A stretch of 64,000 nucleotides of DNA from a bacterium (GCA_963674965.2 CAXXFL010000001.1:1376001-1440000); one strand, 5' to 3'. Shown: positions 53,917 through 56,321, counted from the stretch's first letter. Notes: generated by a model not told the origin, from the letters alone. Translations and numbers: made by a program.

Positions 53917-54981
53917 TTATTCCGTCTCTCCAAAGGGCTCGACAAGGACCTTGATCGAGTTGCCGGCGCCGGCCACCAGCATGAACCCTTTGCCCGCCTC
54001 CTCCAGGGGAAGGCAGTGGGTGATCATGTCCGCGACGGGCAAGCGCTTATACTGGATCAGCTCGATGGCCCGTTCAATATCGGTGGGAGCGCAGGCGTAA
54101 GAAGGCATAAGGGTGATGCCGTTACGCCAGAATTCCTGCACCGGAACGGGCAGGTGTACTCCCGGATCGGTGGGCGCGAAGAACATTACCGTTCCTCCCC
54201 GGTCGACCGACTTCAGGGCCTGCTCGAAGGCCGGGTAGGCGCCGGTGCAGATAATTACCAGGTCGGCCGGGCGGCCGCATATCTCGACCAGCCTGGCGGG
54301 CACGTCCTCATCCGCCTTGATCGTGGCCTCGGCCCCGAAACGCCTGGCCGCCTCGAGACGGTAGTCGTTCATGTCGGTGGCGACGATCATGCCCGCGCCC
54401 AACGCCTTGGCCAGGGCCACGTGAAGAAGACCCGACAGGCCGGCGCCCAAGACGAGAACGCTTATGCCGGGCCGAGTCTTCGCCAGCCTCTGGCCCCGAT
54501 ACACGCAGGCCAAGGGCTCGATGAACACGCCTTCCCGGTAGGTCATCGAGTCGGGAATCACGAACGTGCCCCGGTCAACGTTGATCTCGGGCACGCGAAG
54601 ATACTCGGCGAAGCCCCCCGGAAAAAAGTTGGTGGTATGAAGGGTCTCGCAAACCGTGTGGTGGCCGTTGACGCAGTAGTGGCAGGAGTTGCAGGGAACG
54701 TGATGGGACACGAACACGCGCTGGCCCACTTGATACTTATCCACCTTCGCGCCCGCGGCGACTATCTCCCCGGCGATCTCGTGGCCCAGCACCAGGGGAG
54801 CGCGTTTTATCCTGTACCATTCCATCACGTCGGAGCCGCAGATGCCGCTGGCCATGACCTTGACCAGCATCTCGTGCGGTCCGATCTCCGGCACGGGCAT
54901 GGTCTCGGTCCGCACGTCGGCGTTCCTGTAGTACATGGCCACTCGCATGTCCGATCCTGGCGCGGGAGCGGGACTGGTCAT
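53917..54981 (-). CDS. Zinc-dependent alcohol/sugar-alcohol dehydrogenase (MDR)
   Basis: GICGSD, LGHE, CNSCHYC..C, GAGLSG; AGGAGA RBS 7 nt upstream. Confidence 0.9.
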   Translation of the reverse strand: MTSPAPAPGSDMRVAMYYRNADVRTETMPVPEIGPHEMLVKVMASGICGSDVMEWYRIKRAPLVLGHEIAGEIVAAGAKVDKYQVGQRVFVSHHVPCNSCHYCVNGHHTVCETLHTTNFFPGGFAEYLRVPEINVDRGTFVIPDSMTYREGVFIEPLACVYRGQRLAKTRPGISVLVLGAGLSGLLHVALAKALGAGMIVATDMNDYRLEAARRFGAEATIKADEDVPARLVEICGRPADLVIICTGAYPAFEQALKSVDRGGTVMFFAPTDPGVHLPVPVQEFWRNGITLMPSYACAPTDIERAIELIQYKRLPVADMITHCLPLEEAGKGFMLVAGAGNSIKVLVEPFGETE

Positions 54982-55044
54982 AATAGTCTCTCCTATGATG
55001 GTTGTCTACCCAACCTTTTAAATTAGCTGAATTATTTTACAAAC

Positions 55045-56061
55045 TCAGCCTTTCGCTATTACTCCGTTCGGGAAGTCCTCCCAAATCAAGTTTTCCTGTA
55101 AAGTGATGTAAATGATCTTCAAAAATTTGCGAGCCAGCGCGATGATGGCCTTGCCCGCGCCGCGCCTGGCCTTGATACGCTCGTAGAAGCTCGACAAATA
55201 AGGGCTGTAACGCTTGGCGATGAGGGCGCATTGGACCAGGGTAGTGCGGCCGAGTTTGTTGCCCCGCTTCGTGATCCGGCCCGAGCGGCTGGTCTCGTTC
55301 GAGTTGCTAACCCGGGGGACGATGCCGAAGTAGGAGGCCAGCTTGCCCTCGTCGGGGAAGTCCTTGACGTCAACGATCACCGACAAAAGTATGGCCGAGC
55401 CAAGGTCCCCGATACCCTTTATGCTCTTCAAATTCTTGTGACCGGGAAGCTGATTGCCCGAGTCCTTGATGGCGGCCTCAAGCTCCTTGACCCCGGCGTT
55501 CAAGCCCCGAATCTGCTCCACCAGGACGCGGACCTCGGTCTTGACCATGGGGTCGAAAGGTATCTCCTGCACCGTCTCAAGGCCCTTCTCGCTGGAAAGA
55601 TATTCCTTCTTCAGGTTGATGCCGTGGGCCGAGCAGATGTTGTTGATCTTGTTCTTCAAGGCCGTGCGAAGCTTCACCAGCTTGTCCCGGCTTTGAGTGA
55701 GGCTTTTAACCTGAGCGTGTTCCTTGTTCGGCATCCTCACCTCCGGCAAAAGGCCCTTGGACAAAAACAGGGCAAGGCGTCTGGCGTCGTTGCCGTCCGT
55801 TTTGTTGACCGACTCGCTGATGACCTTGAACTGGCGAGGGTTGACAACCACGACGCGGGAAACGAGGCCGCGAACGGCGTCGTAAAAAAGGCGGACGTTG
55901 CCCGTGACCTCAACCGCGATCTCGTCGGACTCGCGAAGCGTCGAGCAAAACTTCTCCAAATCCTCGAGACGCCAGTCCTTGAGATAGTTCCGTCCGTTCT
56001 CGGCCAGGACGCAAGAGGTGAAACAATTCCTGTGCAGATCGATTCCAATGTACCTTCCCAT
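55045..56061 (-). CDS. IS110-family DEDD recombinase/transposase
   Basis: YIGIDLH, AVEVTG, KTDGNDA (DEDD); SIKGIG, FGIVPRVSNS catalytic-Ser region, RITKRGNK, KAIIALARK. Confidence 0.95.
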   Translation of the reverse strand: MGRYIGIDLHRNCFTSCVLAENGRNYLKDWRLEDLEKFCSTLRESDEIAVEVTGNVRLFYDAVRGLVSRVVVVNPRQFKVISESVNKTDGNDARRLALFLSKGLLPEVRMPNKEHAQVKSLTQSRDKLVKLRTALKNKINNICSAHGINLKKEYLSSEKGLETVQEIPFDPMVKTEVRVLVEQIRGLNAGVKELEAAIKDSGNQLPGHKNLKSIKGIGDLGSAILLSVIVDVKDFPDEGKLASYFGIVPRVSNSNETSRSGRITKRGNKLGRTTLVQCALIAKRYSPYLSSFYERIKARRGAGKAIIALARKFLKIIYITLQENLIWEDFPNGVIAKG

Positions 56062-56089
56062 TTCCTTACTCCTCCCTAGAAATAAATTT

Positions 56090-56250
56090 GATCTAAGGTC
56101 GGAGTAGACACGCTTTGAGGGGCCGCCAAACTCCTATACAAGGTCTAGCCTTACGGTGGCGCTCCAGTCGCGGGGCTGACTAATCTCCTTTACGAGGTCA
56201 TAAGCCTCACGAAAACGATCCAGCCCACGACCCGCCTACTCCAATAGATC
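56090..56250 (-). ncRNA. Putative IS110 bridge RNA
   Basis: Closing stem plus two hairpins with internal loops; G-U wobbles work only on the minus strand; loops contain AAAGGAGA (target match) and ATAGGAG (donor match). Confidence 0.75.
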
Positions 56251-56321
56251 ATTCCTAACCTAGTTGAAGTATTTACCACCTCAAAACTCTTCATTCATAC
56301 CATCTCCTTTTTATGCATAAT

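Follow-up and report, generated by a model that had tools for sequence, protein, structure and literature searches.

What does the non-coding DNA upstream of an IS110-family transposase gene encode, and could it determine where the element inserts? This question was raised by a stretch of bacterial DNA of 64,000 nucleotides (GCA_963674965.2, CAXXFL010000001.1:1376001-1440000; called the window in the following), for which a first-pass annotation had proposed that positions 56090-56250 fold on the minus strand into a bridge-RNA-like molecule with readable target and donor guides. The copies of the element in the source genome and a large set of homologous elements were compared, and the results indicated that the structured stretch is very probably a guide ("bridge") RNA that directs the element to ribosome-binding sites immediately in front of genes.

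The element and its target sites

The limits of the element were derived from a comparison of the flanks of its genomic copies. The source genome contains ten full copies, each 100% identical, and one 48-nt fragment, and the comparison placed an IS110-family element of 1314 bp at 56303-54990 on the minus strand, on which all features described below are located as well. The element is composed of a non-coding left end (LE) of about 245 nt, which starts with ATGGTATGAAT, is predicted to encode the bridge RNA and could be aligned with 112 other distinct LEs (56062-56303), a recombinase gene for a protein of 338 aa (55045-56061), and a right end (RE) of 55 nt, which was delimited by the copy comparison and by a tandem of two copies and ends with CATCATAGGAG (54990-55044). 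It is compact, evidently active to judge from the ten identical copies, and has a set of natural targets built in. Anatomy and comparative evidence together make it highly likely that it is an intact, recently active member of the IS110 family, the left end of which encodes a bridge (seek) RNA.

At all nine independent sites of the source genome the left flank ended with AAAGGAG, followed by ATGGTATGAAT, and the right ends of all copies read ...GGTAGACAACCATCATAGGAG and were followed by variable DNA, with the reading CATCATAGGAG in every copy. The sites had the common pattern AAAGGAG|LE ... RE ATAGGAG|N, with a short core at both junctions. The empty target that had been reconstructed in the first-pass annotation is thus real. 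The same is true for the reconstructed circle junction, because a head-to-tail tandem on contig 7 displays the RE-LE junction ...CATCATAGGAG|ATGGTATG directly. Terminal inverted repeats of the DDE type are absent, and nothing was duplicated upon insertion beyond the crossover region; the crossover takes place inside or at the end of GGAG. The base after GGAG was A, T or G at the right junction and always A at the left junction, and because of this constancy at the left and variability at the right the A after the left GGAG was assigned to the element. The only repeat at the element ends is the 6-bp ACCATC/GATGGT, which overlaps the core (the junction sequence). Among 72 distinct end pairs, the longest end repeats had 4-7 bp in most cases and 9-10 bp in five, which belong to one clade.

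An alignment of 16 relatives was used to fetch 160 loci, 80 from the 383 confirmed stretches of species genomes (mostly metagenome-assembled genomes of Acidobacteriota, some of other phyla) and 80 from the 291 matching stretches of metagenomes. By pattern, the left junction was recognized in 133 loci, the right junction in 138, and both in 118; 27 of the 160 loci without a recognizable left junction and 22 without a recognizable right junction were omitted. The pattern for the right junction demanded AT[AGT][GA]GA[GA], so that the right-end tip is in part conserved by construction; this does not apply to the A/G covariation that is described below.

The target logo of the 118 independent sites was A85 A109 A117 G116 G117 A118 G117, followed beyond the junction by a purine in 99 sites. 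An ATG was present 3-11 nt beyond GGAG in 85 of the 118 sites, with a mode of 6 nt. Read from these sequences, the target is a Shine-Dalgarno (SD) sequence together with a start codon, which in every case lie on the same strand as the recombinase gene. For the window's own copy, the left target half (LT) is the host SD AAAGGAG with the crossover core (56304-56310), in agreement with the nine left flanks and the logo. The right target half (RT), according to the sequence and to the ATG rule at the 118 sites, consists of AGACTATT plus the ATG of an alcohol-dehydrogenase open reading frame (ORF; 54979-54989). After insertion, the host SD precedes the LE, and the RE places an ATAGGAG before the host start codon, with the original spacing retained. 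Targeting of SD sites combined with SD restoration may explain a wide spread at low cost for the host.

Guide sequences and structure of the predicted RNA

The predicted RNA has two internal loops, one for the target and one for the donor. On its 3′ side, the target loop has the sequence U-AAAGGAG-AUUAGU, the central seven bases of which are those of the left flank. All strings that had been quoted in the first-pass annotation, among them AAAGGAGA (56191-56184) and ATAGGAG (56137-56131), were indeed found at the given positions. Because the AAAGGAG of the loop (56185-56191) is identical to the top strand of LT, it can pair with the bottom strand, like a left-target guide (LTG). The conserved AUUAGU that follows (56179-56184) starts with the bases AU, which are also the first two bases of the LE. 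By simple arithmetic, the chance expectation for a given 7-mer in 245 nt is about 0.015.

Covariation between this guide and the flank was counted on 96 distinct guide/flank pairs. The identity between column 164 of the LE alignment and flank position -7 was 0.80 (G-G 15, T-T 6, C-C 3), compared to 0.44 after shuffling, and that between column 165 and flank position -6 was 0.93, compared to 0.76; both values were reached in none of 2000 shuffles. Column 163 and flank position -8 showed no association in the same test. As the flank is host DNA, this covariation is not explained by the shared descent of the element, and it is the strongest single evidence for a guide. The covariation between loops and DNA, for which a test had been suggested in the first-pass annotation, was therefore found for the target loop, and for the donor loop it was reduced to an event in one clade (see below).

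The 5′ side of the target loop (GAUCGUUUUCG, 56210-56220) resembles a right-target guide (RTG), and its complementarity to the top strand extends from the core into the right flank. It has a length of 10-11 nt, is U-rich beside the inner hairpin and represents the most variable part of the RNA. For its comparison with the right flank 120 sites were used, after 22 of 142 had been dropped due to a right flank of less than 12 nt. When the register was freed by one base, the antiparallel complementarity was 5.28, compared to 4.87 ± 0.10 in shuffles (z 4.1; 0/1000), and the parallel and identity controls were null (z -0.9, 0.0 and 1.1). Runs of at least seven pairs occurred at 16 of the 120 sites (4.0 ± 1.9 expected), and at 25 of the 120 sites when offsets of -3 to +1 were allowed (9.4 ± 2.9 expected; 0/1000). 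With one site for each of the 79 distinct loops, the respective values were 9.9 and 2.1. At the site L063 ten of ten pairs were formed with AAAACGAATG, including the start codon (script count), and at L023 ten of ten with AGACAACGTG, including the last two bases of GGAG (hand alignment). At L006, a site of the source genome (GGAG|GAAGCGAT), nine contiguous pairs were formed with AUCGUUUUC, and in one genome AAAAC was common to three of five sites, opposite to the loop sequence GUUUU. The window's own site allowed 8 of 11 pairs, in line with the first-pass annotation, which had described that the opposite halves of both loops match with wobbles or mismatches. The SD half is therefore the constant determinant of the target, and the right half is read loosely, like the wild-type RTG of IS621, which comprises 4 bp in the text of the published description (PMC11208160).

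An element on a Tardibacter plasmid, the recombinase of which has 50% protein identity, served as outgroup. Its layout is the same as that of the window's element, its flank GAAGGAG is matched by a guide GAAGGAG, and its right end ATAGGAG by a guide AUAGGAG. In addition, the base after the LTG equals the first base of the LE, i.e., C in Tardibacter and A in the window's family. This suggests a 2-nt extension after the LTG that would match the recombined left junction, similar to the handshake guide in the text on IS621 (PMC11208158); because the Tardibacter element provides a single comparison, the proposal is kept tentative.

The 3′ side of the donor loop reads (G/A/U)AUAGGAG. The AUAGGAG therein (56131-56137), which resembles a left-donor guide (LDG), is identical to the last seven bases of the RE, and guide and right end agreed in all 62 distinct tabulated combinations with the usual end, ATAGGAG. 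In the clade L083-L091 the RNA contains AUGGGAG and the right end ATGGGAG, and the identity at the variable position was 0.99. On the 5′ side, CCGU (56153-56156), which resembles a right-donor guide (RDG), is complementary to the LE positions +1 to +4 (ATGG) with one G-T wobble. It is replaced by UCAU or UCGU in another subfamily, and column 200 was complementary to right-donor position +4 in 96% of the cases (C with G, U with A). Target and donor have five nucleotides, AGGAG, in common. Column-wise mutual information was not used for the donor beyond three positions, as it was dominated by the descent of subfamilies. On these sequence comparisons, it is probable that the donor module is also a guide.

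A fold of the RNA itself had been proposed, and that of 56062-56320 had a minimum free energy (MFE) of -94.6 kcal/mol, compared to -72.7 ± 4.9 for shuffled sequences (z -4.46), with one of 200 shuffles being as good. The LE alignment contained 113 sequences, i.e., 112 distinct left ends and that of the window, and had 363 columns. RNAalifold predicted 37 pairs, 16 of them with compensatory changes. This model was set aside, as it missed the inner target hairpin and the helix P1 and as three of its proposed pairs would bury the donor guide, and hand-drawn helices were tested instead. In the hand-drawn structure 92.0% of the cells were paired, compared to 33.2-41.5% when the partners were slid by 1-3 columns. 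Double changes were found at 23 pairs (15.3 in shuffles) and in 336 cells (105.5 ± 8.0 in shuffles), and in both cases none of 500 shuffles was as high. G-U pairs were abundant, e.g., U-G in 113 of 113 sequences at columns 203/236, and because of their frequency only the recombinase-sense strand can be the RNA strand.

From 5′ to 3′, the predicted RNA starts with the 5′ strand of P1, GAGGTGG (56276-56282), followed by a region (56242-56275) that forms a 5-bp hairpin in homologues (95.4% paired, compensatory changes at four of five pairs). The closing stem P2 is formed by GAGTAGG (56235-56241) and UCUACUC (56102-56108). In the first-pass annotation it had been drawn as GGAGTAGGC (56242-56234) and GTCTACTCC (56109-56101) with an outer extension GATCT/AGATC. 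Its core (GGAGTAG/CTACTCC) was 99.2% paired in the 113 sequences, with one U-A pair replaced by C-G in six of them, and could be retained; the outer extension had to be given up, as it is specific for this copy and its bases belong to the 5′ hairpin in homologues. The stem encloses the target module, the outer stem of which (TCGTGGGCTG at 56221-56230 with 56168-56178; helix test with the 113 sequences) had been written as GTCGTGGGCTG / CAGCCCCGCGAC before and was 98.9% paired, with compensatory changes at four of ten pairs. The inner hairpin UGAGG...CCUCG (56193-56209) was 95.4% paired, and GAGG/CCUC was exchanged for GGGG/CCCC in 28 sequences. The donor module has an outer stem CGCCA (56157-56161) and UGGCG (56124-56128), identical to the previously proposed second hairpin, and each of its five pairs was formed in 96-100% of the sequences. 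An alternative register of this stem, columns 197-202 with 267-272, was 87.6% paired, had 66 C-A cells at one pair and was dropped. The inner donor hairpin AAGG...CCUU (56139-56152) was 97.7% paired, with compensatory changes at six of eight pairs. The 3′ strand of P1, CCCCUCA (56116-56122), pairs with its 5′ strand across the closing stem; double changes were found at six of eight pairs, yet the region is poorly aligned and only 69% of its cells were paired. The MFE structure of the window's copy contained P1 and not the closing stem. In the same fold, the 3′ strand of the closing stem, CUACUCC (56109-56101), alternatively pairs with the SD of the recombinase gene (GGGAGGAG, 56075-56066), which could couple folding of the RNA to translation of the recombinase.

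Several results weigh against a guide RNA of this design. A comparison with Rfam did not match any bridge-RNA family and yielded only chance-level hits on the opposite strand, i.e., csRNA (20.6 bits, gathering threshold 57) and FMR1-AS1_1 (14.5, gathering threshold 40). A promoter scan of the RE-LE tandem junction found 0 sites by the rule of the tool. Of the sequencing runs listed, none is recorded as RNA, and three runs of one study contain the DNA. As P1 crosses P2, it is either a pseudoknot or an alternative fold. The outer donor stem (P5) exhibited one-sided changes only and no compensatory double changes. A column-wise test of the 5′ target loop versus the right flank in a fixed register gave no clear diagonal signal; the signal was seen only after the register had been freed by 1-3 nt, and most natural sites, including that of the window, match this loop only partly. 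The covariation between LDG and RE is confined to one clade and therefore represents one evolutionary event, the RDG has only about 4 nt, and the agreement between donor guides and DNA is confounded by descent, because the RNA and the donor are parts of one element. The shuffle controls ignore kinship among the sequences. An empty site for the window's locus was not obtained; relatives of other genera keep the aldolase-dehydrogenase gene pair that surrounds the element, and their spacer was not alignable.

Three further explanations were considered. The donor part of the evidence could be misleading, if only the target module guides, as in short seekRNAs of 70-100 nt, and if the AUAGGAG of the second hairpin resembles the right end via the common AGGAG without any donor binding. 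This would fit to the single covariation event and to an RDG of about 4 nt that can enter the alternative stem register, and the text of a published study reports that a short RNA with target matches alone sufficed for movement of ISEc11 and ISEc21 (PMC11187229). However, the identity spans seven nucleotides, two of which (A, U) lie outside the common AGGAG, and the A-to-G change in L083-L091 affected both the RNA and the right end. Moreover, the donor module has the same stem, loop and hairpin layout as the target module and is equally well conserved, and the Tardibacter outgroup keeps AUAGGAG in both places. An RNA with a target guide alone is thus improbable.

It is very unlikely that the LE is a structured leader that controls translation of the recombinase, or a protein-binding DNA, and that the GGAG motifs are SD or anti-SD sequences instead of guides. 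A leader predicts neither that the loop tracks the flank at positions -7 and -6 nor the complementarity to the right flank, and no start codon follows at a usable distance after either GGAG, even though SD-like GGAG is present in both putative guides and in the MFE fold CUACUCC of the closing stem pairs with GGAGGAG, the SD of the recombinase gene. The least credible explanation is that the internal AAAGGAG and ATAGGAG are functionless scars that former nested or tandem insertions left fixed within the LE. The family does include tandem copies and duplications of the right-end tip, but the motifs occupy fixed loop places between compensating stems in elements of 61-85% protein identity, and the LTG changes with the flank in several lineages.

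A bridge RNA with a target and a donor module remained the preferred reading, and it would act as follows. Two modules, each with a stem, an internal loop and a hairpin, would be held within the conserved closing helix. In the target loop, the 3′ strand AAAGGAG would pair with the host SD site's bottom strand, and the U-rich 5′ strand of 10-11 nt would pair with the top strand, beginning at the last one or two bases of GGAG and continuing across the spacer in the direction of the start codon. In the donor module, AUAGGAG would match the tip of the right end, and CCGU would pair with the first bases of the LE. The recombinase and the RNA would then align the circular RE-LE junction (ATAGGAG|ATGG) with the host site AAAGGAG|N, and strand exchange would occur within GGAG or at its end. 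The left junction would retain the host SD, and the right end would donate a new SD, ATAGGAG, at the same distance to the start codon. The comparisons show the limits of the element, the target logo, the conserved and covarying structure of the RNA, and the covariation or complementarity of guides and DNA; we infer that the RNA is transcribed and bound by the protein, as well as the exact positions of cleavage and the use of the donor module. Together, recombinase and RNA may form the complete, programmable pair that had been envisaged in the first-pass annotation.

The recombinase, the genomic setting and further features of the family

The assignment of the gene at 55045-56061 to the IS110 transposases was confirmed. 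The protein matched PF01548 (DEDD, RuvC-like; 2.5e-15, residues 5-141) and PF02371 (Tnp; 1.6e-21, residues 209-294), both above the curated cut-offs of Pfam, and D8, E51, D89, D92 and S254 were invariant in the alignment of the 16 relatives. The IS621 transposase (8wt6) matched distantly, with an E value of 6.6e-13 and mostly in the Tnp domain, and S254 aligned with the serine of its ESG motif. This serine is S241, the nucleophile, in the text on the IS621 structure (PMC11208158). Of 8000 scored candidates, 4599 had an E value of at most 1e-20; the best 120 relatives were 67-100% identical and mostly came from contigs of 1-3 kb. A plasmid search yielded 3408 matching records, nearly all of which were named only "IS110 family transposase" and did not help to place the element in the IS110 or the IS1111 group. 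In many relatives (L012-L053 and others) the right end comprises 200-400 nt, in comparison to 55 nt here, and contains conserved GC-rich blocks.

The element is flanked by a gene for a DeoC/LacD-type aldolase upstream and a gene for a zinc alcohol dehydrogenase downstream, all on the same strand. The alcohol-dehydrogenase ORF starts 11 codons (54981-54949) upstream of the start MRVAMYY that is used by the three relatives of other genera for which a start could be located, and therefore the SD that was hit by the element may serve a non-ancestral start. The right flank starts with GAGGAGGAG, i.e., with SD-like repeats and not with a spacer and an ATG, at seven of the 118 sites of insertion (e.g., L014, L139, L146). 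Within the LE, a conserved ATGAAT 5 nt past the captured SD opens a mini-ORF (56298-56281), which encodes MNEEF* here and the length of which is 2-11 codons in relatives. This stretch may represent a translated leader, belong to a -10-like element (TATGAAT) or form an arm of a subterminal repeat. In the RE-LE junction, TAGACA is located 17 nt before the TATGAA of the LE, a promoter-like arrangement that was read by eye only.

The tandem pair on contig 7 (6724-9359; L008/L009) has its two copies separated by the common ATAGGAG alone, and on its right side the pair is followed by DNA (ATGATATGAATACC) that looks like the beginning of an LE, as if the pair had inserted into an older, decayed copy. 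The solo fragment on contig 6 (L011, about 1074153-1074200) consists of AAAGGAG and the first 41 nt of the LE, beyond which the DNA is unrelated; the left flanks of this fragment and of the contig 7 tandem are paralogues. A tandem duplication of the right-end tip (ACAAACATCATAGGAG), which may come from recombination between donor-like sites, is present at L049, L069 and L127.

Comparison with known systems

Bridge and seek RNAs underlie a new class of programmable recombinases, and their natural variants reveal which features are fixed and which are free. The system proposed here is a guide-RNA system of an already known kind, with guide segments in mirror order relative to the textbook example. 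According to a published survey, bridge RNAs with "diverse structures" were predicted for 85.7% of the IS110 and 93.0% of the IS1111 elements, and the text of a 2026 preprint reports 32,190 bridge RNAs under 86 covariance models and states that many "visibly deviate" from IS621. A literature search for an SD-directed IS110 element or bridge RNA found no paper; the figures and supplements of surveys (Extended Data Fig. 10c of PMC11208160; Fig. S12 of 10.64898/2026.10.21.760802) may show such a layout.

The closest comparison is that with IS621 and IS622 (ISCro4), as described in the text of two publications (PMC11208160; PMC11208158). In both cases the RNA is encoded in the left end upstream of a DEDD/Tnp recombinase gene and on the same strand. 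It contains a 5′ hairpin, a target module and a donor module, each with the order stem, guide, hairpin, guide. One guide equals the top-strand sequence, the other is complementary to the top strand, and the two overlap at the core. In addition, the right-side guide is short or loosely matched at natural sites, as is the RTG of 4 bp in wild-type IS621 (PMC11208160). The target loop of IS621 is described as a stem, LTG (A50-U58), a hairpin, RTG (G77-G80) and a 2-nt handshake guide (PMC11208158).

The differences to IS621 were larger than had been assumed in the first-pass annotation, which had noted both loops inside one closing stem, as the guide order within the loops is also reversed. AAAGGAG and AUAGGAG are located on the 3′ side here, whereas LTG and LDG of IS621 are placed on the 5′ side in the published text (PMC11208158). 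The core lies within GGAG and, by the overlap of the guides, is probably AG (or G), in contrast to the core CT given for IS621. Target and donor have five nucleotides, AGGAG, in common, and an SD site is targeted instead of the repetitive extragenic palindromic (REP) sequence reported for IS621. A conserved enclosing helix and a further, crossing helix are predicted here, and none is mentioned in the text on IS621. Because the guides take IS621-like positions within the RNA and yet recognize the opposite strands and sides of the DNA, the genes for RNA and recombinase seem to be mirrored about the crossover. When the DNA is viewed turned round, the layout matches that described for IS621, with a long guide at the 5′ side and a 7-nt guide plus 2-nt extension at the 3′ side.

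The text on the seekRNAs (PMC11187229) allowed a comparison with two further types. The IS1111-type seekRNAs of ISEc11, ISPa11 and ISKpn4 also have the complement of the top strand 5′ of the match to the bottom strand, provided that the target is drawn there in the orientation of the transposase gene, and the 338 aa of the recombinase are within the range of 330-350 aa given for IS1111 transposases. In contrast, the non-coding region is reported to lie downstream of the gene in the IS1111 type, with few exceptions such as ISMtsp17, and upstream of it here, and the subterminal inverted repeats have 11-13 bp there, compared to the 6-bp repeat of the window's element. ISEc21, which is of the IS110 type, has an upstream non-coding region and guides that match both strands, with an overlap at the point of insertion; in this case, however, the top-strand match is 3′ of the bottom-strand match, and it is 5′ here. 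This reversal of the guide order between the IS1111 type and ISEc21 was reported by Siddiquee et al. (PMC11187229). As far as can be read from the sequences, the window's family combines the upstream region with an IS1111-like guide order.

The site preference has a counterpart in the mycobacterial IS900/IS901/IS902 group, the members of which insert between a ribosome-binding site and the start codon in one orientation. The transposase gene of this group faces away from the targeted gene, whereas the recombinase gene of the window's element points in the same direction as its target gene.

It is conceivable, though rather doubtful, that these features represent a third guide-RNA layout of the IS110 family that has not been singled out in print, with an upstream RNA, a mirror-image reading of the site, an IS1111-like guide order, a lock made of a closing and a crossing helix, and tuning to the whole translation-initiation region. 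If true, a 7-nt guide for the SD would be combined with a guide of up to 10 nt that spans the spacer and the start codon. Being tuned to the translation-initiation region, such an element could therefore insert before almost any gene of any bacterium that uses SD sequences, and it would donate a replacement SD. In comparison to IS621, the data indicate that the guide order within the loops can invert while the RNA remains in the left end, that a core other than CT is possible, and that drift of one guide is compatible with a second guide that stays fixed on a universal motif, the SD.

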